Shown here in pieces: positions 256-43,223 of a stretch of DNA of 64,000 bases. The notes under the pieces are model-generated. The model searched no databases and had not been told where the DNA came from. It was given only the letters and a program-made list of their open reading frames with translations. Position 1 is the first letter of the stretch. Every line of letters begins with the position of its first letter. Position numbers and translations under genes: made by a program. This DNA comes from a virus: positions 1-64,000 of the IMG/VR virus record IMGVR_UViG_3300019487_000003. One strand, written 5' to 3'.

Positions 256-3200
256 GTGAGTGCCAAGTACCCTTTTCGTAGATCATATCTAACACAACCA
301 CCTCCAGGGGTAGAAATAAACCCTGGCCACCCTCTCTCAAAGGGTCTTGTGTCCTATTGGACATTTGCTACTACTGGAAAAAGAGTATATGATCTTGGTC
401 CTGCTCAGAAACATGGCCCATTTTCTGGTGTTATATCAATAAATCGAACAAATAATCATAGAATTTCCGGAAATTGTGTTGAAACAACTAACAGTAACGG
501 AGAATTCATCAATTTTGGAACAAGCACACTTTATCCTATTGGTGCCGCAGCAAGAACCATTACTTTTTGGGTGCAACCAGATACAGATACAGCAAGAAAC
601 TGGGTAGATTATTCATCTAATACTTCAAATATCCTTAATATTGGACAAAGATTTAGAATTTATACCCAAAATGGTGCTATCAGAATGGATTTTGGTCTAC
701 ATTCTGTAAGAACACCAAACAACGTAATTCTACCTAACGAAACTTGGGCTTTCGTGGCAGTTGTTGTTCCTGTTGGTGCCACAACAACAGGACAAGTCCA
801 AATATATTTACAAGGAGTTTTACAAACTCTTACAGCTACTAGTGGAACAAGTCAAACACTCAATACCACAAATATTAACGTTCAAGTTGGAGAAGGATTT
901 GATGGGACAAATTCTGAAGGAAAACTTACAGAATTAAGAATTTATAATAGAGCATTATCAAATTCAGAAATCATTCAATTGAAGAATATGCCTTGGGCGA
1001 ACTTCACTGAACCAACTTATTTAACTGATCTTCAACCGGCACCAGCTACACAAATTATTTCTCCAACTAGTATTGCAAGTGCAGAAGCATTTGGTTCTCA
1101 TCTTGTAAATCAAAATATTTTACCAAATGCTATTCCTTCAGCAGAAGCAATAGGCCTTGCACAATTAAATCAATTTATTATTGCACCAAGTTCTATTCCT
1201 TCAGCAGAAGCGTTTGGGACAGATATAATTGTGCATGAAATTGAACCATCTTCTATTCCAAGTGGTGAAAATTTTGGGTTGCCACTTGTTATGACAAATG
1301 TTATAACAATTTTTCCTACCGGGCCGCCTTCTGAAGAAGCGTTTGGTACTCCCCTTCTTATACAACATATAAACCCTTCAAGCATCAACTCAGATGAGGC
1401 TTTAGGTACTCCAACTTTAGCATTTGGAGTGATAACACTTCTACCAGTCGGTATTACCTCACAAGAGGCGATTGGAAATCATCAAATAAATTTAGAAACA
1501 GAAGAAATTGGTATTGCCTCTGGAGAAGCCTTTGGTATACCATTAATTATTCAAACAATTATCGCTCCAACTTCTATCTCAAGTGGCGAAGCCTTCGGCA
1601 CACCCCTAATAGTTCAACACATTCATGCTATTTCAATAAATTCTCAAGAGGCTTTTGGTACTCCAACAGTTTCTACAGGATTTGTAACTATACTTCCAGA
1701 TGATATGGGTTCCGAAGAAGATTTTGGAATTCCTTTTGTAAGTTCACCATCTACTATAATTGTTCTAGGAATTCCTTCCGAAGAAGATGTAAATGAACCT
1801 ATAATTGTTCACAAAATTTTCAACTTCACACTAAACTCTGAAGAAGATTTCGGCCTTGCAAAATTTAATTCAAAAATACATAATCCGACAAGTATACCAA
1901 CAGAAGAAGTATTTGGCACACCTGAATTACTTGTAGGAAATACAAATGTTCTTCCTAGTTCTATTGCTCCTTCAGAAGCATTTGGTAATACAACATTAGT
2001 ATTGTATTTACAACCAAGTTCTATAGCTTCCGAAGAATCTGTAGGTACACCAGAACTAGATGTGATACTAGATAACTTTACTATACCATCACTCGAAAAT
2101 GTTCCACCACCAACTATAGTTACATCTGGTATTAGTGTTAGTGTTACTTCAATTGCTTCAGAGGAAGCATTTGGTACACCTCAATTAATGGTTCATATAC
2201 ACCCTATTGGGATCACTTCTCAATCAGATTTTGGTGTAATTTATATTTTATCAAAGATAGTTCCATTTTCTATTCCTTCTGAAGAAATTTTTGGTGCCAC
2301 AAAAATAAATAGCCACATTCAACCATCTGGTATAGTTTCTGGTGAGACAATTGGTTCTCATACACTTAGTTATGTTATTAAACCAAGTTCTATAGGATCT
2401 AATGAATTTTTTGGTTCTCCAACAATTGTAACTCCAATTGCACCATTGCTTCCTACAAGTATTGGTTCTCAAGAAACTTTTGGTAATACGCAAGTTAATT
2501 TAAAACTATTCACAACAGGAATACCATCCGAAGAAGCATTTGGTTCTGATAGTTTAAATGAAAATATTAAACCATCTAGCATACCTTCTACTGAAGCATT
2601 TGGAACATTAAAAATAAATCAAAATGTCTATCCTGTTTCTATATCTTCAAATGAAGTCTTTGGGACTCCTAGTGTTATTCCTGAAATAGATGAAACATCT
2701 ATACCTTCTGCTGAAGCATTTGGTTTAGCGCAACTAAACCTCAAACTGTATCAATCATCTATACCTTCTGCTGAAGCATTTGGTTTAGCAAAATTGAAAT
2801 TATATGTTGCTCCATCAAGTATAGGTTCTTCTGAAGCCTTTGGCTCACACTCTGTTGGATATAAAATAAAACCAACTGCAATACCATCTGGACAAATATT
2901 CGGTGCACCAACTATTATTCCTGGTGCAGTTAGTATAATTGTTCCTTCTATAGGTTCATCTGAAGCCTTTGGTTCACATAAGATTAATCACAAAATTAAT
3001 CCAAGTAGTATTGCCTCGGCTCAGATGTTTGGTTCATCGAATGTTACACAAGAAGTTGATAGATTTTCTATCCCTTCCGCAGAAGCATTTGGTATACCTA
3101 AAGTCAAAAAGTTTGTTCATCAAATATCTATACCTTCGGCAGAAGTTGTTCCTGCTCCTAAAGTTAACCTTAAGATTAAACCTACAGGAATTCCAAGTGA

Positions 3201-4131
3201 AGAAAGTGTTCCTAATGTTAATATAGAGGTTGGTCCTGTTTTTGTTGTTCCTCCTTCTATTCCTTCTGCGGAAGATGTTTCGACCAGTGATAGAATTAGA
3301 ATTAGAATACACTTAAATCCTGGACTTGGTATACCAACACAACAAGCATTTGGTATACCTCAATTAAACTTTATTTTGCATCCACAAGGATTCAATCAAA
3401 CAATTGTTCCTAGTCCTATTATTGTTACAGGTAACACAAATATATCTGTATTTGGATTAATTACAAGAGAACATTTTGGTACACCTAAACTTGTATTTGA
3501 AATTGATACAACTGGCATACCTTCTGCTGAAATTTTTGGATCACACTCAATTCTGAAAAAGATAAAAGTTACATCTATTTTATCGAACGAAAGTTTTGGA
3601 TCTCATAAGGTTGTAAAGATATTGGGTGTAACTGGAATTGCAACTGGGGAATCTTTTGGTTCTGTAAATGTTGTTCCTGAAATTGATCCTATAGGTATTC
3701 CTTCTGAAGAAAATGTTCCTACCATCAATCTTATTCAATCTGCCGCCCCTCTTGGGACAGTTTCTATCGGAAGCGGAGAAACATTTGGAAGTTTGAAAGT
3801 CAATCTTTCTATTATTGATGCGGGCAATATAGAATCCGGGGAAGATTTCTTAAATGCAGAAATTTTTGAAATGGGAATTGAGTCAGAAGAAGAATTTGGG
3901 CTTCCACTTCTATTAAAACAATCAGTCATATTGCCATTAGGAATTCCTTCTCAAGAACAATTCGGTGGAAACACAAGGGTATTCCAACAACTAATTACGC
4001 TTGAAGATAATCACGACGGAATCCCAACAAATGAAGGATTAGGTATTCCATGGTTAGTCAACCACAGAGACAGAGCTTTTGTAACATTGTCTGCAAGTAA
4101 AAGAAATTATAAATATCTCGTGAGAAAATAA
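256..4131 (+). CDS. Giant fibre/adhesin-like protein: N-terminal LamG/concanavalin-like domain followed by about 48 tandem ~20-aa repeats (consensus I-x-P-S-S-I-P-S-A-E-A-F-G-x-P-x-L)
   Basis: Uninterrupted 1291-aa ORF with a GTG start 8 nt after GAGG. 'GKLTELRIYNRALSNSEI' is typical of the end of LamG_3-type domains. Repeats were parsed by eye from the translation. Confidence 0.8.
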   Translation: MSAKYPFRRSYLTQPPPGVEINPGHPLSKGLVSYWTFATTGKRVYDLGPAQKHGPFSGVISINRTNNHRISGNCVETTNSNGEFINFGTSTLYPIGAAARTITFWVQPDTDTARNWVDYSSNTSNILNIGQRFRIYTQNGAIRMDFGLHSVRTPNNVILPNETWAFVAVVVPVGATTTGQVQIYLQGVLQTLTATSGTSQTLNTTNINVQVGEGFDGTNSEGKLTELRIYNRALSNSEIIQLKNMPWANFTEPTYLTDLQPAPATQIISPTSIASAEAFGSHLVNQNILPNAIPSAEAIGLAQLNQFIIAPSSIPSAEAFGTDIIVHEIEPSSIPSGENFGLPLVMTNVITIFPTGPPSEEAFGTPLLIQHINPSSINSDEALGTPTLAFGVITLLPVGITSQEAIGNHQINLETEEIGIASGEAFGIPLIIQTIIAPTSISSGEAFGTPLIVQHIHAISINSQEAFGTPTVSTGFVTILPDDMGSEEDFGIPFVSSPSTIIVLGIPSEEDVNEPIIVHKIFNFTLNSEEDFGLAKFNSKIHNPTSIPTEEVFGTPELLVGNTNVLPSSIAPSEAFGNTTLVLYLQPSSIASEESVGTPELDVILDNFTIPSLENVPPPTIVTSGISVSVTSIASEEAFGTPQLMVHIHPIGITSQSDFGVIYILSKIVPFSIPSEEIFGATKINSHIQPSGIVSGETIGSHTLSYVIKPSSIGSNEFFGSPTIVTPIAPLLPTSIGSQETFGNTQVNLKLFTTGIPSEEAFGSDSLNENIKPSSIPSTEAFGTLKINQNVYPVSISSNEVFGTPSVIPEIDETSIPSAEAFGLAQLNLKLYQSSIPSAEAFGLAKLKLYVAPSSIGSSEAFGSHSVGYKIKPTAIPSGQIFGAPTIIPGAVSIIVPSIGSSEAFGSHKINHKINPSSIASAQMFGSSNVTQEVDRFSIPSAEAFGIPKVKKFVHQISIPSAEVVPAPKVNLKIKPTGIPSEESVPNVNIEVGPVFVVPPSIPSAEDVSTSDRIRIRIHLNPGLGIPTQQAFGIPQLNFILHPQGFNQTIVPSPIIVTGNTNISVFGLITREHFGTPKLVFEIDTTGIPSAEIFGSHSILKKIKVTSILSNESFGSHKVVKILGVTGIATGESFGSVNVVPEIDPIGIPSEENVPTINLIQSAAPLGTVSIGSGETFGSLKVNLSIIDAGNIESGEDFLNAEIFEMGIESEEEFGLPLLLKQSVILPLGIPSQEQFGGNTRVFQQLITLEDNHDGIPTNEGLGIPWLVNHRDRAFVTLSASKRNYKYLVRK
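1054..4060 (+). repeat. In-frame degenerate tandem array with ~60-nt period (about 48 units)
   Basis: Recurrent 'ccttc(t/a)gc(t/a)gaagcatttgg' cores. Units starting at 2701 and 2761 share their first 29 nt exactly. Confidence 0.85.
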
Positions 4132-27539: not shown

Positions 27540-28988
27540 ATGAGTCAAGAGTTTTATACTAACTGCGTAACAGTTGGAAATAGAGTTTTATACCGAGGAT
27601 ATAAAAATGGTTCTCGTGTTCATCGTTCTATAGAATACAAACCTTCACTTTTCATATCCTCAAACAAATCTAGTAAATTTAAAACCCTTGAAGGTAAATC
27701 TGTTGAGAAAATAGAATTCTCTGGTATAGAGGATGCAAGAGAGTTTCTTAAGAAATACGAGAGTATAGACAATTTCACAGTATATGGTAATACAAATTAT
27801 CATTATTGTTATTTGTCAGATACATTTACTGGACAAGTAGATTATGATCCTAATCAGGTCAAAGTAATGTTTCTTGATATTGAAACCTCATATGAAGATG
27901 GTTTTCCTAATCCTCAATCTGTTCAAGAGCCAGTTATCGCTATTACAATTAAACTTAAAGACAAATTCTATGTCTATGGCACAAAAGAGTTTAAAACAGA
28001 AGACAAAAATGTATTTTATTTTAAGTGTGATGACGAAAAAGATTTGCTATCTCGTTTCGTGCAAAAATGGCAAGAACTAGACCCTGATATTATCAGTGGT
28101 TGGAATATTGAGGAGTTTGATATACCATATCTGATCAATCGTATCTCTCGTGTCCTTTCTGAAAAGGACTCTAATTCTTTATCTCCCTGGAAAAGACTTA
28201 GAACAAGGAAGGTTAAGTTACAGGGAAGAGAATATGATAATTTTGAATTGATAGGAATTTCGACACTTGATTATCTCCAGATGTATCGAAAGTTTGTTGG
28301 CACTGCTGAAAACTATAAATTGAACACTATCGCACAAATGGAATTGGGTGAAGGAAAGGTTCAGGGTGATATGAGAGATATGTATCACAATGATCACCAA
28401 AAGTTCATAGAATATAACATTCAGGACGTTGCACTTGTTGCAAAGATAGATCAAAAGATGGGACTCATTCAGATGCTTTGTGCAATTGCTTATGATGCCA
28501 AAGTGAATATTGTTGACACTTTTGCTCAAGTAAGATTATGGGATACTATTATCTTCAATGATTTTCGTCCCAAACATCTTGTAATGCCACAGAAAGCAAA
28601 ACACGATAAGGAAACTAGATATGCAGGAGCCTTCGTAAAAGAGCCTAAAGTTGGAATGCATAAATGGGTTGCATCATTTGACTTAGATTCTCTGTATCCT
28701 CATTTGCTTGCACAATATAATATATCTCCAGAAATGTTAGTTCCAGGAGCATTTAAAACAACTGATCTTGACAAACTCTTGAAAAAGGAATATGATTTGT
28801 CCTATTTGAAAGAAAGGGGTTTAACAATGGCAGCAAACGGACATCATTTTAAAACAGATAAAGAGGGGTTTCTCCCAGCTATCTTAATGAGAATGTATCA
28901 AGATAGAAAGGTTTACAAGAATAAGATGTTAGATTCACAGAATGAACTTGAAAGGGTCGAAGCTGAATTTAAAAGACGAGGGCTATAG
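27540..28988 (+). CDS. gp43: DNA polymerase (family B, gp43) N-terminal cistron: exonuclease domain and palm motif A
   Basis: Exo I 'FLDIET', Exo II 'GWNIEEFDIPYL', Exo III 'YNIQDVALV', motif A 'SFDLDSLYPH'. Ends with TAG about 85 aa after motif A. Confidence 0.92.
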   Translation: MSQEFYTNCVTVGNRVLYRGYKNGSRVHRSIEYKPSLFISSNKSSKFKTLEGKSVEKIEFSGIEDAREFLKKYESIDNFTVYGNTNYHYCYLSDTFTGQVDYDPNQVKVMFLDIETSYEDGFPNPQSVQEPVIAITIKLKDKFYVYGTKEFKTEDKNVFYFKCDDEKDLLSRFVQKWQELDPDIISGWNIEEFDIPYLINRISRVLSEKDSNSLSPWKRLRTRKVKLQGREYDNFELIGISTLDYLQMYRKFVGTAENYKLNTIAQMELGEGKVQGDMRDMYHNDHQKFIEYNIQDVALVAKIDQKMGLIQMLCAIAYDAKVNIVDTFAQVRLWDTIIFNDFRPKHLVMPQKAKHDKETRYAGAFVKEPKVGMHKWVASFDLDSLYPHLLAQYNISPEMLVPGAFKTTDLDKLLKKEYDLSYLKERGLTMAANGHHFKTDKEGFLPAILMRMYQDRKVYKNKMLDSQNELERVEAEFKRRGL

Positions 28989-28991
28989 TGT

Positions 28992-29369
28992 ATGCCAAAA
29001 TCAAATAAAGCTAAGGAGTTTGTAAAGAAAATGGATAAGCTCCGAAATAAGAAACCCGGTGAAGTTGATTATGTTGAGGTCCTAGAAAACATTCTAATTT
29101 CTGAGGAGCCTCTTGATACTCTTGTAAGATTACCTTTTGGACAATTGATTAATGTTGGTCTGGATAAACTTTTACAGAATCTTTCTGTTTTAGCAATCGG
29201 AACAGATGACGATGGCCAATTCAAAATCGATAAGTTGGGAGTAGAACTTGCAGGAGTTGTAGATCAAGATATAGTTTTTAGAGTTACAGGAACACTTCAA
29301 AAATATAAGGTCGAGCATAAAAAATTGCCTGCGATAAAGAAATCAAAGAAGAAAAAGAAGGCCTCTTGA
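28992..29369 (+). CDS. Hypothetical protein encoded inside the split polymerase gene
   Basis: 125 aa, Lys-rich termini. Starts 3 nt after the stop of the polymerase N-cistron. No nuclease or intein motif seen. Confidence 0.55.
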   Translation: MPKSNKAKEFVKKMDKLRNKKPGEVDYVEVLENILISEEPLDTLVRLPFGQLINVGLDKLLQNLSVLAIGTDDDGQFKIDKLGVELAGVVDQDIVFRVTGTLQKYKVEHKKLPAIKKSKKKKKAS

Positions 29370-29854
29370 AAAGAACAGATTATATAAGTTGGGATCAGTA
29401 TTTCATGTCTGTTGCACTTCTTTCGGCGCAACGTAGTAAGGATCCAAGCACACAAGTTGGTGCATGTATAGTTTCTCCAAGTAAAAGAGTAGTTGGTGTT
29501 GGATACAATGGTTTCCCAAATAAATGTCCAGATGATCAATTACCTTGGGGAAAAGATTCTGAGGACGAAAACGAAACCAAATATCCCTATTGCGTTCATG
29601 CAGAACTAAATGCAATCTTAAATACAACACAAATGGGCTTGAAGAATTGCACAATTTATGTTACACTCTTCCCTTGTTCTGATTGCACTAAGGCGATCAT
29701 TCAATCTGGAATTACACACGTTATCTATTTAAATGAAATAATTAAACCAAGATACTTGCACAGTATGGAAGCATCTAAAAGAATGTTAGACCTTGCTAGT
29801 ATACCTTATTCAAAATTTGAAAAGACTGGTAGATATATCTGCCTTGAATTATGA
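29366..29854 (+). CDS. cd: dCMP deaminase
   Basis: 'WDQYFMSVALLSAQRSKDP', zinc motifs 'CVHAELNAI' and 'PCSDCTKAI'. TTG start in a TTGA overlap with the upstream stop. Confidence 0.88.
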   Translation: MKRTDYISWDQYFMSVALLSAQRSKDPSTQVGACIVSPSKRVVGVGYNGFPNKCPDDQLPWGKDSEDENETKYPYCVHAELNAILNTTQMGLKNCTIYVTLFPCSDCTKAIIQSGITHVIYLNEIIKPRYLHSMEASKRMLDLASIPYSKFEKTGRYICLEL

Positions 29855-30963
29855 TTGACCTTACAAAATTGTCAGATAAAGAATTAGTTGCATACAAGCA
29901 AAAGATTTCATTTGATGCTTCAAAATACAAGAATCTTCAGCTTGCCAAAAAAGTTCAATTAAACGCCGCCTATGGTGCTCTTGGTAATGAATACTTTCGA
30001 TTCTTTGATGTGCGTCAAGCTGAGGCAGTTACTATTTCAGGACAATTTGCCATTCGTTGGATTGAAAGAGATTTGAATTTATACCTAAACAAGGTTTTGA
30101 AGACAGAGAATGTTGATTATGTCATAGCGGCCGATACAGATTCAGTCTATTTAAATTTATCTTTTATAGTAGATGCTGGCTTTGGAGACAAGCCACAAGA
30201 GCCACAAAAGGTTGTTGATTTTCTTGATAAGTTTTCTAATCAGGGATTGCAAAAAGAAATTGAGCGTTCTTATAATGCTCTTGCAGATTACGTTAATGCA
30301 TTTTCACAAAAGATGAGAATGAAAAGAGAATCAATTGCAGATAGAGGTATTTGGACATCTAAGAAGCGTTATATAATGAATGTTTATGATGCTGAAGGTG
30401 TTAGATATACAACACCCAAACTTAAGATTATGGGAATCGAAGCAATCAAATCTTCAACTCCACAATATTGTCGAGACAAGATTAAGGAAGCAATTAAACT
30501 TATCCTGAACAAATCCGAAACAGATTTACATTCATATATCCAAGATGTAGAAAAGGAATTTAAAAATCTCCCTCCGGAAGAAGTTTCCTTTCCTCGTTCA
30601 TGTAATGGACTCATGAAATATTTTGATCATCAAAATGTTGCAAAATCTGGAACACCTATTCATGTTAGGGGTTCTTTGATATATAACAAGCTAGTAAAAG
30701 AAAAGAAACTCACTAAGAAATATCCATTGATACAAGATGGGAACAAAATCAGATTTTTATATTTGAAGGAACCCAATCCTGTCCAAAGTCATGTTCTTTC
30801 TATTGTCGATGGACTTCCTGAGGAGTTTTCACTTGAAAAGTATATCGATTATGATATACAATTCGATAAGGCATTTAAAGAGCCTCTTCGGAGCATATTG
30901 GATGCTATAGGGTGGGGAACAGAAAAGAAAAGAGATTTGTCGTCATTTTTCATTGATGGGTAA
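29851..30963 (+). CDS. gp43: DNA polymerase (family B, gp43) C-terminal cistron: motif B, motif C and thumb
   Basis: Motif B 'KKVQLNAAYGALG', motif C 'VIAADTDSVY', 'KKRY'. ATGA overlap with the cd stop codon. Confidence 0.92.
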   Translation: MIDLTKLSDKELVAYKQKISFDASKYKNLQLAKKVQLNAAYGALGNEYFRFFDVRQAEAVTISGQFAIRWIERDLNLYLNKVLKTENVDYVIAADTDSVYLNLSFIVDAGFGDKPQEPQKVVDFLDKFSNQGLQKEIERSYNALADYVNAFSQKMRMKRESIADRGIWTSKKRYIMNVYDAEGVRYTTPKLKIMGIEAIKSSTPQYCRDKIKEAIKLILNKSETDLHSYIQDVEKEFKNLPPEEVSFPRSCNGLMKYFDHQNVAKSGTPIHVRGSLIYNKLVKEKKLTKKYPLIQDGNKIRFLYLKEPNPVQSHVLSIVDGLPEEFSLEKYIDYDIQFDKAFKEPLRSILDAIGWGTEKKRDLSSFFIDG

Positions 30964-33768: not shown

Positions 33769-34744
33769 AAACACAATTCTATTAGGCGATTGCCGATTAA
33801 GATTAAAAGATATTCCTAATAGCACTATTGATGCTGTTGTAACAGATCCTCCTTATGAACTTGGGTTTATGGCAAAGAGTTGGGATGCTTCTGGTGTTGC
33901 CTATAATATTTCTGTTTGGGAAGAAATTTTAAGAGTTTTAAAACCTGGTGGACATTTACTTTCTTTTGGGGGAACAAGAACCTACCATAGAATGGTTTGT
34001 GCTGTTGAAGATGCTGGATTCGAGATAAGAGATCAGTTGCAATGGCTTTACGGTCAAGGATTCCCAAAGAACATGGACATTTCAAAAGCAATTGATAGTA
34101 AACTTGGAGCAACAATAGAAGATCAAGCAAAAAAGTGGGAAGGCTGGGGGACTGCGTTGAAACCTGCTAATGAACCAATCGTATTAGCAAGAAAGCCGAT
34201 TTCTGAAAAGACAATAGCTGAAAATGTTTTAAAATATGGAACAGGTGGTATCAATATTAATGATACCCGAATCAACTTACAGTATGATTCTGAAGATGAC
34301 AGGTGCCGATGGCCAGCTAACATTATATTAGATGAGGAAGCTGGAGCAATCTTGGATTCGCAACAAGAAGGCACTTCCCGATTCTTCTATTGTGCTAAAC
34401 CTAGTAAGAAAGAAAAAGATGCAGGCCTTGAGAATAGGGTCAAAAAGAACGTAAATGACGGTAGACAGACATCCATTGATAACCCATATCAAAGGGGTGA
34501 TACAGAAAGATTAAACACTCATCCAACCGTTAAACCGATAATGTTGATGGAATATTTGATAACTCTTATTACTCCATCGAATGGTATCGTATTAGACCCT
34601 TTCGCCGGGAGCGGAACCACTCTTATTGCTGCCAAAAATCTAGGGTTTGACTATCTTGGTATAGAGATGGACCCTGAGTTTGTAGATATTGCAAATCTTA
34701 GATTGAATAGTGCTAAGAGTTTAAATAAGTTTTTAACAGAATAA
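33761..34744 (+). CDS. Beta-class DNA N6-adenine/N4-cytosine methyltransferase
   Basis: Motif IV 'VVTDPPYE' near the N-terminus and motif I 'LDPFAGSGTT' near the C-terminus. ATG at 33761 overlaps the gp41 stop. Confidence 0.85.
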   Translation: MIKNTILLGDCRLRLKDIPNSTIDAVVTDPPYELGFMAKSWDASGVAYNISVWEEILRVLKPGGHLLSFGGTRTYHRMVCAVEDAGFEIRDQLQWLYGQGFPKNMDISKAIDSKLGATIEDQAKKWEGWGTALKPANEPIVLARKPISEKTIAENVLKYGTGGININDTRINLQYDSEDDRCRWPANIILDEEAGAILDSQQEGTSRFFYCAKPSKKEKDAGLENRVKKNVNDGRQTSIDNPYQRGDTERLNTHPTVKPIMLMEYLITLITPSNGIVLDPFAGSGTTLIAAKNLGFDYLGIEMDPEFVDIANLRLNSAKSLNKFLTE

Positions 34745-34773
34745 ATATGATTTAGCTTCACTTAAAGGTTCAA

Positions 34774-35679
34774 ATGGCTTCAAACACCGATCTTGCAGAT
34801 ATTAACGAAATATTGCTCGGATATTATCTGAATGGTCAAGAATGGTATGATAATGATGCAAAGAAGCAATATGAGAAAAAGAAAAAGGTTGCCACTGAGC
34901 AAGAGCTATTAGCACAGGATAGACGTGCTTCAGCAATGGCCGATGAAGTTATCAAATGGGCTAAAGCTAATGGCTTTTCTGGAAAAGTTTCAATGGTATG
35001 GTGGACAGCCCGTCCGGGTGTTTTAGCAAATGCAGTTGGTAAAGACGTTGACTCACGAAAAAATCCAACAGACATTTTAATCAAATTTTCAGATAAGAAG
35101 TTTTTGGGTGTCTCGGCCAAATCAACAAAAGGTAAGGGAGATATTGGATTTAAAAATCCTGGGATGGGAACAATAGAAAAAAGTTTGAAAATAGATTTGA
35201 AATCTGTATATCAAAAGTTTGAAGCAGATGCGATTAAGAAATATAAACTTCCTTCTTCTACTTCAGAACGAAAATCAAAAATTAGAAAAGACCCAGCACT
35301 TCAATCTAAAACTCAAGCATTGGGATCGAAAGCATTAGAATCTATTAGAGATGCGATGTTTAAGAAATTAAATTCAATGTCTCAAAATGACATTAAGAAA
35401 TATATTATGACTGACTGGATGGATTCATCTCAGGGTCTTTATCCACCTTATATCAAGGCAACAGGAATGGGAAACAAAGAACCATTTACAGCTAAGATTG
35501 ACGATCCTCTTAATAACGATAAACTTAAATCTCTCCAAAAATCGCAGATAAAACTAGAAAAGATTGGGAATGAATCGATTGGAGTTTCCGCTGGTGGCAA
35601 AAAGATTATGAAAATGAGAGCAAAGTTTGAATCAGAAAAACTTGCAAGTTCAATAAAATTTAGTGGCGATCCCTGGTAA
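34774..35679 (+). CDS. Hypothetical protein with a possible degenerate PD-(D/E)xK-like nuclease core
   Basis: 'NPTDILIKFSDKKFLGVSAKSTKGKG' (D-x14-S-x-K). Sits directly downstream of the methyltransferase. Weak, pattern-level evidence only. Confidence 0.3.
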   Translation: MASNTDLADINEILLGYYLNGQEWYDNDAKKQYEKKKKVATEQELLAQDRRASAMADEVIKWAKANGFSGKVSMVWWTARPGVLANAVGKDVDSRKNPTDILIKFSDKKFLGVSAKSTKGKGDIGFKNPGMGTIEKSLKIDLKSVYQKFEADAIKKYKLPSSTSERKSKIRKDPALQSKTQALGSKALESIRDAMFKKLNSMSQNDIKKYIMTDWMDSSQGLYPPYIKATGMGNKEPFTAKIDDPLNNDKLKSLQKSQIKLEKIGNESIGVSAGGKKIMKMRAKFESEKLASSIKFSGDPW

Positions 35680-36896
35680 TGAGAAACTTTAAACAACATT
35701 TAGCTGAAAGCAAGAATATTCACCTTGAACATATAGAAGATGAAATATTCAATAGGGGCGCTATAGGTTTAAGAGAAGCTATCAATTTTCTTTTGAGTTT
35801 GCGTAACATGCTTTTGGGTCATAGTAATTCGCGTGTTAATGTCACTGTAAAATGGGATGGTGCTCCAGCTATAGTTGTTGGGACTGATCCTCAATCAAAG
35901 AAATTTTTTGTTGCAACAAAAAGTGCTTTCAACAAAAATCCAAAAGTAAATTATTCAACCTCAGACATCTATAAAAATCATTCGGGGCCTTTAGCAGATA
36001 AATTGGCAACAGTATTCACATTGTTAAAACCATTAAACATTAAAGAAATTTTACAAGGGGATCTTTTATATCTTGCTGAAGATTTAAAGACTGTAGTTAT
36101 AGATGGTGAGAAGTGTATTGCCTTCCGACCAAATACAATAACATATGCAGTGCCACTAGAAAGCGATTTGGGTAAAAAAATTGCAAGAACAAAACTGGGC
36201 GTAGTGTTTCATACAACATACACTGGAGACTCTATTAAAGATTTGAAAGCATCCTTTGGTGCCAATGTTAACAAGTATAAAAATGCTTCAAATTCATTAT
36301 GGATCAATGATGCTTATTATAAAGATGAAAGCGGAACAGCTACTTTAACTGCCGATGAGAGCGCACAAGTTACAGCCCTATTATCTCTAGCAGGACATCT
36401 ATTTCAGGCTATTGATTCTAGCTTTCTAAATAGTTTAGCTAGAGATGAGACATTACGAAATCTCATCAAAACTTTTAACAATTCCAAAGTTAAAGCTGGG
36501 CAACCTATTGGGAATGTTAAAAGTCATGTTACTGAATTGTTAGCTTTTATTGATCAAAAGTTTCAATCAGAAATAGATGCACTGAAGACAGAAAAGGGAA
36601 AGCAGTCAAGAGAAGATAAACTAAAATCTATCAAATCTTTCATTAGAAAATCTCGGGGAGCTTTCTTGGGTGTGTTTGAAATGTATAATTTGTTAACACA
36701 AACAAAAAACATTATCATTCGGAAGTTGCAATCTGTTAAAAGTCTAGGCACATTTATAGAAACCTCAGATGGTTTTAGAGTAACAACTCCCGAAGGGTTT
36801 GTTGCTGTTGATAATATTAGTGGCAAGGCAGTCAAATTAGTTGATAGATTAGAATTCAGTTACGCAAACTTTACTGTTGCAAAAGATTGGAGTTAA
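35679..36896 (+). CDS. KxDG nucleotidyltransferase (ligase/capping-enzyme superfamily)-like protein
   Basis: Candidate motif I 'VKWDGAPA', III 'LQGDLLY', IV 'PEGFVAVD', V 'GKAVKLVDR'. No OB domain after motif V. ATG overlaps the upstream TAA by 1 nt. Confidence 0.4.
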   Translation: MRNFKQHLAESKNIHLEHIEDEIFNRGAIGLREAINFLLSLRNMLLGHSNSRVNVTVKWDGAPAIVVGTDPQSKKFFVATKSAFNKNPKVNYSTSDIYKNHSGPLADKLATVFTLLKPLNIKEILQGDLLYLAEDLKTVVIDGEKCIAFRPNTITYAVPLESDLGKKIARTKLGVVFHTTYTGDSIKDLKASFGANVNKYKNASNSLWINDAYYKDESGTATLTADESAQVTALLSLAGHLFQAIDSSFLNSLARDETLRNLIKTFNNSKVKAGQPIGNVKSHVTELLAFIDQKFQSEIDALKTEKGKQSREDKLKSIKSFIRKSRGAFLGVFEMYNLLTQTKNIIIRKLQSVKSLGTFIETSDGFRVTTPEGFVAVDNISGKAVKLVDRLEFSYANFTVAKDWS

Positions 36897-36897
36897 G

Positions 36898-37923
36898 ATG
36901 AAATCAGTTTTTGATATATTTGAGGGGGTAAGAGGTAAGAAGGCGGTGTTCACGTTTGGTAGATTTAATCCTCCGACCAAGGGGCATGAACTTCTTGTGA
37001 ATAAGGTGTTAAATTACGCTCGTGCTGAAGGTGCAACCCCATTTATTTTTGTATCACATTCACAAGATAGTAAAAAAAATCCTCTTTCGTTTAGCGATAA
37101 AGTCAAATATATTGAATTGGGTATAGATGGTGCAAAAGGCCTTGTCCAAAAAGATCCTTCTGTTAGAACACCATTTGATGCAGTAGAAAAGTTGGGTAGG
37201 GCTGGATTCACAGATGTTATTATGGTTGTTGGATCTGATAGAGTAGCAGAATTTCAAACAACAATTTCAAAGTATATAGGACATCCAGATCCGAATAAAC
37301 GATTATCCATTGAAAGATTTTATGTTGTTTCAGCCGGTGAAAGAGATCCAGATTCAGATACGTTATCAGGTTTAAGCGCATCAAAAATGCGAGATGCTGC
37401 CTTGAGAAAGGATTTATCTTTATTCATGTTGGGTGCACCTTCAAAGTTATCAGCAAGATTTGGTAAAGAGATGTTTGATAAAGTCAGACAAGAACTTACC
37501 GAACAGGTCGCTGATTCAGGAAGTGGACTTAGTTATACTCGCGAAGAAATGCCACAAATACAGGCTGATTATGTAGATGAGTTTATCGATCTGTTAGTTT
37601 CTCAGGGAGTAAAAGTTGTTTCACAAGAGTTATCAATTGACTTACTTAAACCAACCCAATCCGAAATCAATACAGATAAGGTAGATCAAAAATTTGATGA
37701 TTTAGTTGCAGGAAATGTAGCAAGCAATTTTATTCCGTTCATTACATCAAATGACTATAGAATCATCGATAGACATCACCAGCTTTTTGCTTTAAAGAAA
37801 TGGGCTCCAGGAATGAAAGTTCCTGCCTTTGTTATCGACTTAGATATTCATGATTTGTTGGATAAAGCAAAATGGTTTTCCAAAACTACCTATAAAGATA
37901 TTGATGGAAACTCTATTAAATAA
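36898..37923 (+). CDS. Fusion of a NadM/archaeal-type NMNAT-like cytidylyltransferase-fold domain and a ParB/Srx-like (ParBc_2-like) domain
   Basis: 'FTFGRFNPPTKGHELL' ((H/T)xGH) and 'LSASKMRDA' (ISSTxxR-like) in the N-terminal half. 'LLKPTQSEIN' and 'IIDRHHQLFAL' in the C-terminal part. GGAG SD. Confidence 0.55.
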   Translation: MKSVFDIFEGVRGKKAVFTFGRFNPPTKGHELLVNKVLNYARAEGATPFIFVSHSQDSKKNPLSFSDKVKYIELGIDGAKGLVQKDPSVRTPFDAVEKLGRAGFTDVIMVVGSDRVAEFQTTISKYIGHPDPNKRLSIERFYVVSAGERDPDSDTLSGLSASKMRDAALRKDLSLFMLGAPSKLSARFGKEMFDKVRQELTEQVADSGSGLSYTREEMPQIQADYVDEFIDLLVSQGVKVVSQELSIDLLKPTQSEINTDKVDQKFDDLVAGNVASNFIPFITSNDYRIIDRHHQLFALKKWAPGMKVPAFVIDLDIHDLLDKAKWFSKTTYKDIDGNSIK

Positions 37924-37930
37924 ATAATAT

Positions 37931-38257
37931 ATGGTCAAGAGTTTCAAAAATTACATTTCCGAAGAACCAGCTAAGAAGACTGATAAACCACCCACAGAAG
38001 TCGATAGGGTTCGTTCAAGACAAAAGCAATTGAAGAAAGATACGAAAGCAAAAGAAACTTCTGAATTGAAAAGAGCGAGAGAAATAGATTTCCAGCGTTC
38101 TGAGGCAGAGAAAGAACGTAAGATGAAACAAGGAGAGGCAGAAAAGAGAGCAAAAGAAGCGTCAACATCTGAGAGTTTGGAACTTCAAACCGAAGTTTTA
38201 GAGGTTGGCACAGAAACAACGGTTAGAAACTATAGAGAGAAAGTACCAGGGCAGTAA
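37931..38257 (+). CDS. Highly charged K/E/R-rich small protein
   Basis: 108-aa ORF, low complexity. Confidence 0.4.
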   Translation: MVKSFKNYISEEPAKKTDKPPTEVDRVRSRQKQLKKDTKAKETSELKRAREIDFQRSEAEKERKMKQGEAEKRAKEASTSESLELQTEVLEVGTETTVRNYREKVPGQ

Positions 38258-39940: not shown

Positions 39941-39956
39941 TTTGTAAATGTGAAAT

Positions 39957-39991
39957 GGGTGAGGGAGAAATCCCTCACCCATCTATTTTTG
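39957..39991 (+). terminator. Rho-independent terminator with GAAA tetraloop
   Basis: GGGTGAGGGA (39957-66) pairs with TCCCTCACCC (39971-80). A T-rich tail follows. Confidence 0.8.
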
Positions 39992-42665: not shown

Positions 42666-43223
42666 ATGACAAAAACATTTAAGCAATTCATTGTAGAAGA
42701 AAAATTACCAACCATCTATTGTGACATGGATGGTGTCCTTGCAGACTTCGAGCGCGGAGCAAATCAAACTCTAATTGGATTTGGATATCCTGATTGGTTT
42801 TCTAACCATTGGAAAGAATATCCACAAGAAAAGGCAGATGAGTTACGCTGGGAGATCATAAAAAAGAAAAAATTTTTCTGGCGAGACCTACCTCCAATGG
42901 GTGACGCATTAGCCTTGTGGAGATTCATTCAAAAGTATAATCCTCACATTTTAAGTCATGCTATTAAATACATGCCAACTGCCAAGCCCGAAAAAACACA
43001 ATGGCTTAAAAGGGTAGTAGGACTAAATAATCCAAGCGTTACACATCTTGTTGATAACAGGGGCGACAAACGAAAATATGCCACTTATAATGGCCACCCA
43101 AATATTTTGATTGATGATTATGGTAAGAATTGTGCAGAGTGGAAAGACGCAGGCGGGATTGCAATTCATCATACAAGTGCTGTTAAAACAATAAGTGAAC
43201 TAAAAAGTTTGGGATTTAAATAA
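42666..43223 (+). CDS. 5'(3')-deoxyribonucleotidase-like HAD phosphatase (NT5C family)
   Basis: HAD motif I 'IYCDMDGVLADF'. Size and 'LIDD' motif are consistent with NT5C. Confidence 0.7.
   Translation: MTKTFKQFIVEEKLPTIYCDMDGVLADFERGANQTLIGFGYPDWFSNHWKEYPQEKADELRWEIIKKKKFFWRDLPPMGDALALWRFIQKYNPHILSHAIKYMPTAKPEKTQWLKRVVGLNNPSVTHLVDNRGDKRKYATYNGHPNILIDDYGKNCAEWKDAGGIAIHHTSAVKTISELKSLGFK

Follow-up and report, generated by a model that had tools for sequence, protein, structure and literature searches.

A nucleotidyltransferase–ParB-like fusion protein of an uncultured T4-like myovirus, its DUF6267 partner and a possible route of delivery from the capsid

T4-like cyanophages and their marine and freshwater relatives carry a large protein family annotated as 'cytidyltransferase'. 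Here, we describe a two-domain member of this family, which is encoded on the + strand at positions 36898 to 37923 of a 64,000-nucleotide stretch of viral DNA (IMG/VR record IMGVR_UViG_3300019487_000003, positions 1 to 64,000)—the entire stretch being referred to as the window. The protein of 341 residues joins a HIGH-superfamily nucleotidyltransferase domain (N-domain) to a ParB/sulfiredoxin (Srx)-like domain (C-domain), and its gene directly follows that of a conserved partner, a DUF6267 protein. The explanation that accounts best for these observations, and to which we give an even chance, is an enzyme of two modules that is delivered from the capsid and acts together with DUF6267 as infection begins.

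The mechanism that we infer would start in the prohead core, into which DUF6267 and probably the fusion protein would be loaded via short N-terminal leaders, like the internal proteins and Alt of T4. The gp21-type prohead protease would trim these leaders after a Glu, and the proteins would be ejected into the cell along with the DNA to act at the very start of infection—with DUF6267 as an obligate partner. The N-domain would transfer a nucleoside monophosphate from a nucleoside triphosphate (NTP) to a phosphorylated acceptor, for which the fold suggests nicotinamide mononucleotide (NMN) or nicotinic acid mononucleotide (NaMN) as the best single guess. The ParB/Srx domain might add an NTP-dependent step, which could be the phosphorylation of the acceptor or the binding and nicking of nucleic acid.

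The gene, its ribosome-binding site, its domains and their motifs are located as follows:

36898..37923, +, coding sequence of 341 aa with leader, HIGH nucleotidyltransferase domain and ParB/Srx-like domain (open reading frame (ORF) and translation)
36889..36892, +, GGAG ribosome-binding site (sequence), overlapping the end of the DUF6267 gene (TAA 36894-36896)
36937..37509, +, HIGH-superfamily (Rossmann) nucleotidyltransferase domain with NadD/NMNAT-like fold (PF01467, PHROGs, Foldseek)
36958-36987, +, GRFNPPTKGH motif
37072-37089, +, KKNPLS motif
37168-37185, +, TPFDAV motif
37231-37242, +, GSDR motif
37330-37353, +, SAGERDPD motif
37375-37392, +, SASKMR motif
37510..37923, +, ParBc_2-type ParB/Srx domain (PF08857, Foldseek, BFVD)
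37540-37560, +, REEMPQI motif
37642-37671, +, LLKPTQSEIN motif
37762-37794, +, IIDRHHQLFAL motif

Both domains had been named by a first, sequence-only reading of this DNA as NMNAT-like and ParB-like, and Pfam, PHROGs and AlphaFold2/Foldseek agree with it; we regard the two domain calls as hardly in doubt. The coordinates of that reading were exact (start ATG 36898, stop 37923), and its motifs are all present: GRFNPPTKGH at residues 21-30, SASKMR at 160-165, LLKPTQSEIN at 249-258 and IIDRHHQLFAL at 289-299. The AlphaFold2 model, calculated from a 49-sequence alignment, has a mean predicted local distance difference test score (pLDDT) of 91 with low values (56) for residues 1-10, and model and Foldseek search reveal the Rossmann (H/T)xGH fold, whose absence had been named beforehand as a reason to give up the assignment. 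A Pfam scan at E<=1 returned CTP_transf_like and ParBc_2 only, and no polyvalent-specific ParB model was matched.

The nucleotidyltransferase of the HIGH superfamily spans residues ~14-204; its active-site signature, (T)xGH...SxxxxR, is intact, and its fold is NadD/NMNAT-like. CTP_transf_like (PF01467) covers residues 19-120 with a score above its cut-off (E 8e-5) and is matched by 47 of the 49 full-length homologues, while phrog_3041 and phrog_395, both annotated 'cytidyltransferase', match at E 7e-49 and 3e-40. GRFNPPTKGH stands directly after strand E14-21 and holds the (H/T)xGH motif of the HIGH superfamily, and SASKMR provides the phosphate-binding motif equivalent to ISxxxxR/KMSKS. Invariant among the 49 homologues are G21, R22, P25, H30, N61, P62, L63, K68, G112, D114, G147, R149, S160 and R165.

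In a Foldseek search of the PDB, ranks 1-23 are all NadD/NMNAT structures (E 3e-6 to 3e-4, target-normalised template-modelling score ~0.55), with FAD synthetase (FADS) and TmcAL as the next neighbours. This ranking is a structural hint towards a first alternative, NAD+ salvage or reconstitution, which the sequence-only reading had put forward as well. Here, the N-domain would truly be an adenylyltransferase of NMN/NaMN and restore NAD+ in the face of defences that deplete it, the ParB/Srx domain could be a kinase making NMN from nicotinamide riboside—a logic like that of NadR and NARP3—and DUF6267 could be a new NMN-supplying partner. The NadD-like motifs GxFxPxTxGH, TPFDAV, GSDR and SxxxxR fit this idea, and we take TPFDAV to compare with SYTxDT and GSDR with GADS of NadD at the level of motif resemblance. 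The sole sub-threshold NCBIfam matches are to NadD and NadM-Nudix as well, with scores of 17 bits vs a cut-off of 112.45 for TIGR00482 and 14 bits vs 397 for NF003786; neither family threshold is reached. Sequence identity to the NadD/NMNAT structures is 11-18%, a phmmer comparison with Bacillus subtilis NadD (1kam) gave E 0.46, and no PHROG annotated as NMNAT was matched. PDB sequence searches with the whole protein and with the family profile returned nothing significant, the profile finding no NMNAT, such that the fold search alone provides the NMNAT link.

The Pfam match to CTP_transf_like, and the same annotation in several cyanophage genome papers, would also suit an auxiliary metabolic gene for envelope precursors, i.e., a cytoplasmic TagD-like cytidylyltransferase for glycerol-3-phosphate or another sugar phosphate. 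Among the top 50 Foldseek matches there is no TagD or sugar-phosphate cytidylyltransferase—NadD/NMNAT, FADS and TmcAL appear instead—and no NCBIfam TagD model was matched. Virion association, partnership with DUF6267 and conflict-type fusion partners, all described below, are likewise unlike envelope biosynthesis. We reject this very improbable reading because it agrees with neither the gene context nor the structural neighbours.

Residues ~205-341 form a ParBc_2-type ParB/Srx domain. The ParBc_2 model (PF08857) matches residues 244-326 at E 6e-4 and 20.4 bits, just below its cut-off of 23.6, and is matched by 42 of the 49 full-length homologues at E<0.1 (best E 5e-6). Foldseek fits the N-domain of pNOB8 ParB (5k5d, 5k5a) to the C-terminal part of the protein (E 3.6e-4 to 1e-3, root-mean-square deviation (rmsd) 3.1 A over 92 columns), and the BFVD neighbours of the domain are labelled ParB/Sulfiredoxin (rmsd 1.4-2.7 A). 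Profile A3 weakly matches 1VK1 and the free serine kinase SerK at their DGHHR motif (E 0.1-0.4, ~20 residues). Both His residues of the pair, the PTQ motif and R215 do not vary. By analogy, the ParB/Srx fold would bind NTPs here: characterised relatives are kinases (SerK, SbnI, Srx) or a nicking nuclease.

A word-indexed homologue search with the C-domain was empty due to an index miss; exhaustive HMMER later gave 1264 cluster representatives. In the best 150 of these, the settings of the domain are distributed as follows:

C-domain solo, ~140 aa: 70/150
C-domain inside larger proteins (up to 2559 aa) without N-domain: 64/150
C-domain with N-domain: 12/150
tandem C-domains: 4/150

Partners of the C-domain include Zeta kinases, InPase pyrophosphatase and the PolyA_pol/CCA-adding head domain, and it also resides within giant DarB-like proteins of Bcep22-like phages, including Bcep22 gp75. 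This appearance in varying combinations inside large multidomain phage proteins is as in the DdrB-like ParB domains of polyvalent proteins. Individual metagenomic fusions are P0277 with an InPase pyrophosphatase, P0253, P0256 and P0292 with Zeta_toxin/AAA_33 kinases, and P0295 (870 aa), in which C-domain, HIGH nucleotidyltransferase and PolyA_pol/CCA-adding head domain are joined. The main text of a 2025 survey of ParB-CTPase fold fusions does not list a nucleotidyltransferase partner (PMC12704722).

The fusion protein belongs to the 'cytidyltransferase' family of T4-like cyanophages and their relatives in marine and freshwater phages. With its sequence, tblastn returns 666 phage records, mostly Synechococcus and Prochlorococcus myoviruses, in which the matching gene is annotated 'cytidyltransferase' or 'cytitidyltransferase' and shares the N-domain only. 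The combination of both domains, which the sequence-only reading did not recognise from elsewhere, turned out to have company: domain-architecture searches of a large protein collection found it in ~46 proteins (42-58% identity, 326-341 aa), one of which is present in UniProt/BFVD (A0A6J5M804, 45% identity, E 1.7e-43). Within this large family, the nucleotidyltransferase–ParB fusion is, hence, a minor architecture that recurs, and an ordinary one.

We surveyed the neighbourhood of the N-domain in 80 IMG/VR loci, scanned with hidden Markov models of DUF6267, N-domain and C-domain. The N-domain proteins of these loci are 231-1878 aa long and carry the following partners:

DUF5824: 18/80 proteins
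Zeta_toxin/AAA_33 P-loop kinase: 13/80
RimK-type ATP-grasp plus Zn_protease: 5/80
HNH: 2/80
SET: 1/80
PAP2: 1/80
SutA-RBD: 1/80
ART-PolyVal: 1 (P0068, outside the 80)

The N-domain is a constant head with interchangeable C-terminal effector domains, of which the ParB-like domain is one choice, and the partner repertoire of N- and C-domain overlaps that of the capsid-packaged 'polyvalent proteins' (PMC5512222).

These partners bear on NAD+ reconstitution in both directions. The 13 of 80 sister proteins with a P-loop kinase, and the kinases such as SerK within the ParBc_2 clan, parallel NadR/NARP3, one relative joins the N-domain to an NAD+-consuming ADP-ribosyltransferase (ART), and the authors of the S-CREM2 study call its ORF154 an NMNAT homologue (PMC10665884). 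On the other hand, SET, RimK and DUF5824 do not follow an NAD logic, and the conserved partner is DUF6267 rather than an NAD gene. Known phage NAD pathways pair the adenylyltransferase with an NMN supplier (NARP2: Nampt and Nmnat; NARP3: PnuC and NadR); an Nmnat gene accompanies 94% of the Nampt genes of phages, and NARP3 needs PnuC. Among the called genes of the 84 kb examined—the window and 10 kb on either side—Pfam finds no Nampt, PnuC, Nudix or PRPP-synthetase (Prs) gene. Also, the family is near-universal in T4-like cyanophages, whereas NARP2 is found in ~1.1% of phages. With a likeness at the fold level only, NMNAT models out of reach and no salvage partner in these 84 kb, the salvage hypothesis of the sequence-only reading is not supported. 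We hold NAD+ reconstitution for doubtful, and specific NAD chemistry as such for doubtful as well, or marginally less so.

A conserved feature of the family is the gene that precedes it:

35679..36896, +, DUF6267 gene, 405 aa, conserved partner (PF19782, E 4e-114)
35850-35861, +, KWDG, ligase-like at the motif level only
36054-36062, +, QGD, likewise
36792-36809, +, EGFVAV, likewise
36834-36848, +, KLVDR, likewise
34774..35679, +, 301-aa protein, first gene of the co-directional run of 301-aa, DUF6267 and fusion genes

Of the 75 IMG/VR loci with enough upstream sequence, 70 have DUF6267 upstream of the N-domain and on its strand; two of these 70 (L049 and L063) encode both as one DUF6267–nucleotidyltransferase fusion. 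Such a fusion (728 aa) is also encoded by metaG-MbCM1, and in P0281 (733 aa), DUF6267, nucleotidyltransferase and ParB-like domain make up one triple fusion—that is, both window genes joined. S-ShM2, Melnitz and S-SZBM1 show the same gene order, and phrog_455 covers both window genes. The link to the upstream 'KxDG' gene that had been suspected from the sequence is thereby borne out, and we regard the DUF6267–nucleotidyltransferase gene pair as nearly certain. Gene order and fusions are strong evidence that both products work together. Within the window, translational coupling of the two genes is likely, judging from their spacing, because the GGAG site overlaps the end of the DUF6267 gene and the fusion gene starts after a gap of 1 nt behind the TAA. 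In the remaining five loci (L044, L046, L059, L069 and L071), the N-domain proteins are long (725-1267 aa) and no DUF6267 gene lies within 2-6 kb upstream of the N-domain gene; these loci might show what replaces DUF6267. A nearly invariant N-x-H-L-E-H-(L/I)-E-D-E stretch follows right after the DUF6267 leader (35715-35745, residues ~13-23), and this acidic/His motif could bind a metal or carry a second processing site.

DUF6267 has many invariant polar residues, among which K58-W-D-G, Q126-G-D, E372-G and K386 are ordered and spaced like ligase motifs I, III, IV and V and lie on predicted beta strands. They suggest a second alternative, a module for nucleic-acid end-healing, sealing or modification that would, like T4 Pnkp and Rnl1, mend tRNA or DNA after an attack by host defences. 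DUF6267 would then be a divergent lysine-nucleotidyltransferase of the ligase/capping type, and the HIGH nucleotidyltransferase would activate or modify an end or supply a cofactor. The ParB/Srx domain—or the Zeta/AAA_33 kinases of sister proteins—would handle 5' ends or bind nucleic acid, and a HAD phosphatase encoded nearby would heal 3' ends. Consistent with this, P0295 brings N-domain and ParB-like domain together with a CCA-adding head domain, PNK-class P-loop kinases are the second commonest N-domain partner, the HAD nucleotidase-like gene recurs nearby in 12 loci, and phage ParB/Srx domains have been reported as nicking DNases (PMC5512222). However, ligase, capping and RNA-ligase Pfam families are not matched even at E<=10 in 38 DUF6267 proteins, a PDB profile search with DUF6267 found no ligase, and Foldseek with its AlphaFold2 model gave nothing at E<0.07, the best ligase-like structure (9qw7) being at rank 41 with E 3.3. 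For the C-terminal strands that carry the putative motifs IV and V, the pLDDT of the model is below 50. The usual substrates of Zeta-type kinases are small molecules, and we know of no RNA-repair system that uses a HIGH nucleotidyltransferase. We retain a ligase-type identity of the upstream gene, which the Pfam, PDB profile and fold searches do not support, solely as a lead at the motif level, and we consider the end-repair module unlikely.

The preferred reading, delivery from the capsid, builds in part on the N-termini of these proteins. In T4, the first 10 residues suffice for loading into the prohead, where positions 4 and 7 set the targeting and positions 8 and 10 the gp21 cleavage (PMC9026906); the N-terminus of IPII and IPIII is MKTYQEFIAE. 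Comparable leaders are found at the following positions:

35679..35708, +, DUF6267 leader MRNFKQHLAE, then S, a look-alike of the T4-type capsid-targeting sequence
36898..36924, +, leader MKSVFDIFE of the fusion protein with (L/I)xE at residues 7-9, a candidate targeting and prohead-protease cleavage leader
37931..38257, +, 108-aa highly charged (K/E/R-rich) protein with leader MVKSFKNYISE, a candidate internal head protein
42666..43223, +, 185-aa HAD 5'(3')-deoxyribonucleotidase-like protein with leader MTKTFKQFIVE (phrog_2643, E 1e-26)

With the pattern M-x(1-8)-[FYW]-x-x-[FYWHLIM]-[LI]-x-E, the leader is detected in 116 of 120 DUF6267 proteins, with the E at position 9 or 10, vs a rate of 0.15% in shuffled sequences; the consensus is M-K-T/N-F-x-E/Q-Y/F-L/I-T-E followed by S or A (MKTFxxYLTE). 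The putative T4-type leader on DUF6267 is, to judge by its sequence, newly noticed here. Three of the 75 window genes match strictly—DUF6267, the 108-aa protein and the HAD protein—and all of them lie within 7.5 kb around the fusion gene. In L007 and L008, the gene right behind the fusion gene encodes a homologue of the 108-aa protein, a candidate that resembles a T4-type internal head protein; homologues of the HAD protein are encoded some kb 3' of the N-domain gene in 11 further loci. For the fusion family itself, the leader consensus is MKTLxE with L7 and E9 at least 90% conserved among the 49 members; more distant N-domain members carry MKTYKSFMTE or MKNFRQLMDE, and 73 of 120 N-domain proteins have (L/I)xE within their first 14 residues. 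The protease expected to cleave such leaders is at hand, as a gp21-type Peptidase_S77 (216 aa) is encoded just upstream of the window and T4_CASP and Gp23 inside it. The gp23 of this phage carries an LNE/A site, which we take to be the counterpart of the LTE/A cleavage site of T4 gp23.

Members of the family have been found in virions. S-SZBM1_140, an N-domain homologue (E 3e-46) whose neighbour S-SZBM1_141 is DUF6267, was detected in CsCl-purified virions with 2 peptides and 13.5% coverage (PMC9146016), and ORF154 of S-CREM2 was detected in the virion proteome with 3 peptides (PMC10665884). For the C-domain, a solo homologue in phage Marzo is annotated as virion-associated via homology to Vi01_117c, and its gene adjoins an ADP-ribosyltransferase and a baseplate gene. 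Taken for itself, we put packaging into the capsid slightly above even.

Several observations weigh against an active enzyme delivered in this way. The virion detections of the cytidyltransferase amount to 2-3 peptides only, the S-CREM2 authors warn of a possible carry-over of abundant soluble proteins (PMC10665884), and DUF6267 is not among the detected proteins in either virion proteome (PMC9146016, PMC10665884). The leader of the fusion protein is a loose match, and taken alone it is weak evidence for a packaging signal, because the looser pattern, (L/I)xE in the first 14 residues, occurs in 10 of the 75 window genes (13%); conversely, 46 of 120 N-domain proteins do not have (L/I)xE in their first 16 residues. 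Directly upstream of the gene pair, the exact T4 late-promoter consensus was not found. In this region, the sites are one-mismatch AATAAATA copies only, at 34740-34747 (+) ahead of the 301-aa gene and at 37919 (+) ahead of the 108-aa gene. Finally, the C-domain has DRHHQ in place of the DGHHR of the wider family (108 of 150 representatives), a motif that is DGHHQ in its own subfamily and that the protein shares as DRHHQ with its closest homologue P0002 (58% identity). As neither the Gly nor the Arg that is usual in the superfamily is retained, the ParB/Srx activity may be altered.

The surrounding genome is that of an uncultured T4-like myovirus, with a typical gene content in window and flanks. 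Head genes comprise a Portal_T4 portal, the gp21-type protease, a gp22-type scaffold and gp23, and replication and recombination are represented by UvsY, UvsW, gp46/47, gp45, gp44/62, RegA, UvsX, a gp41-type helicase and a split gp43 polymerase. ThyX, class II ribonucleotide reductase, RNase H, PhoH and a MazG-like protein are encoded as well. An identical fusion protein is present on 7 metagenomic contigs of ~167.7 kb (e.g., JGI 3300019458 Ga0187892_10000170 and NCBI GCA_974707335.1). A megablast of the 12 kb surrounding the gene gave no cultured-phage match; the phage therefore appears, on sequence grounds, to have no close cultured relative. The split gp43-type DNA polymerase (27540-30963, +) consists of a 482-aa ORF (exo and N-terminal pol) and a 370-aa ORF (C-terminal pol), between which a 125-aa ORF and a dCMP deaminase gene are placed. 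A 1291-aa ORF (256-4131, +) stands within the head-morphogenesis cluster between the gp21-type protease and gp22-type scaffold genes and has no Pfam match.

The 301-aa gene is kept upstream of DUF6267 in only 2 loci, and its product matched nothing in Pfam, PHROG or PADLOC; a PADLOC scan of the fusion protein and its neighbours gave no match either. Exact copies of the T4 late-promoter consensus TATAAATA occur in the window at 7 sites (4108, 4937, 6320, 24833, 38273, 40891 and 48274), all 7 on the + strand and mostly shortly 5' of head or structural genes, their total number being not above chance. A strong hairpin resembling an intrinsic terminator (39955-39982, +; a stem of 12 bp, 7 of them G-C, and a T-run behind it) lies directly 3' of a gene for a 438-aa head-decoration/fibre-like protein and is the first convincing terminator downstream of the DUF6267–nucleotidyltransferase run.

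Literature searches found no paper on 'DUF6267' or 'cytitidyltransferase'. The 'cytidyltransferase' and DUF6267 genes are near-core genes of T4-like cyanophages and of freshwater and heterotroph-infecting relatives, with thousands of metagenomic homologues for each family. Gene pair, combinatorial effector set and the near-canonical T4 capsid-targeting sequence of DUF6267 give what had been a mere annotation predictions that can be put to the test: the leaders should be cleaved after Glu9 or Glu10, and the proteins should be present in heads and be ejected into the host. If true, capsid delivery would extend the T4 internal-protein route to large enzymes in ecologically dominant ocean phages and would add a class of injected effectors beyond the catalogued polyvalent proteins. 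If the NMNAT-like chemistry were real, it would also bear on the picture of the NAD+ arms race (NARP1-3). The most far-reaching form of this idea is, in our view, unlikely: the NMNAT-fold nucleotidyltransferase, together with the kinase or ParB domains added to it, and DUF6267 would make up an unrecognised two-enzyme pathway of T4-like marine and freshwater phages, preloaded into the capsid by a T4-type leader and injected with the DNA, which might serve as a fourth route of NAD+/dinucleotide reconstitution or in nucleic-acid end repair. In both cases, the protein cargo would be an enzymatic pathway instead of one inhibitor, and it would act ahead of all phage gene expression.

Among known systems, the cyanophage 'cytidyltransferase' family (T4-GC 190; phrog_3041, phrog_395; S-PM2 Q5GQJ8, S-ShM2 gp181, S-SZBM1_140) is the closest. 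Its N-domains are homologous (36-43% identity, rmsd 1.3-2 A), its genes share the position after gp41 helicase and DUF6267, and members were found in virions. Cultured cyanophage members carry other C-terminal extensions or none, in contrast to the ParB-like domain described here. metaG-MbCM1 is the only member of the cultured set that aligns beyond the N-domain (query residues 9-305), and the C-domain model found no ParB-like domain there.

With NadD/NMNAT (NaMN adenylyltransferase, human NMNAT1, NadM-Nudix, NadR), the protein has the fold and the ATP-binding motifs (H/T)xGH and SxxxxR in common. The fusion of an adenylyltransferase to a second nucleotide-using domain is also known from NadR, which bears a kinase, and from NadM, which bears a Nudix domain. 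Here, the second domain is ParB/Srx, not a P-loop ribosylnicotinamide kinase (RNK) or Nudix, and the partner is DUF6267.

The C-domain shares its fold, LxPTQ and S-x-D-x-x-I-x-D-G-H-H with the ParBc_2 branch (Pyrococcus furiosus 1VK1, SerK 5X0B/E/J and solo 'virion-associated' phage proteins). Phage homologues are either small and virion-linked, such as the solo proteins of Vi01-like phages, Menderavirus and T4-like phages of Aeromonas, or modules of giant DarB-like proteins. The differences lie in DRHHQ, which replaces DGHHR, and in the N-terminal R-x-x-M-P-Q-I of the family, which is not in the SerK alignment.

Polyvalent proteins, as described by Iyer, Burroughs, Anand, de Souza and Aravind in 2017, are likewise multidomain and combinatorial, share ART-PolyVal, InPase, Zeta-toxin kinase and ParB-like domains, and travel in capsids and are injected, as has been predicted or shown (PMC5512222). 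Neither a HIGH/NMNAT-like nucleotidyltransferase nor DUF6267 nor cyanophages are mentioned in that survey (PMC5512222). In contrast to polyvalent proteins, the constant module here is the nucleotidyltransferase, the presumed signal is a T4-type leader instead of MuF/MPTase, and the protein has two domains only.

Capsid-targeted cargo of T4 (IPI-III, Alt) differs in that its bodies are small basic proteins, whereas those described here are large enzymes—though Alt is itself a 76-kDa enzyme—and in that packaging and cleavage are putative in the present case. In common are a gp21-type protease, the arrangement of diverse bodies behind one conserved leader and, clearly for DUF6267 but more loosely for the fusion protein, the leader itself, which has aromatics at positions 4 and 7, L/I at 8, E at 10 and a small residue next to it.

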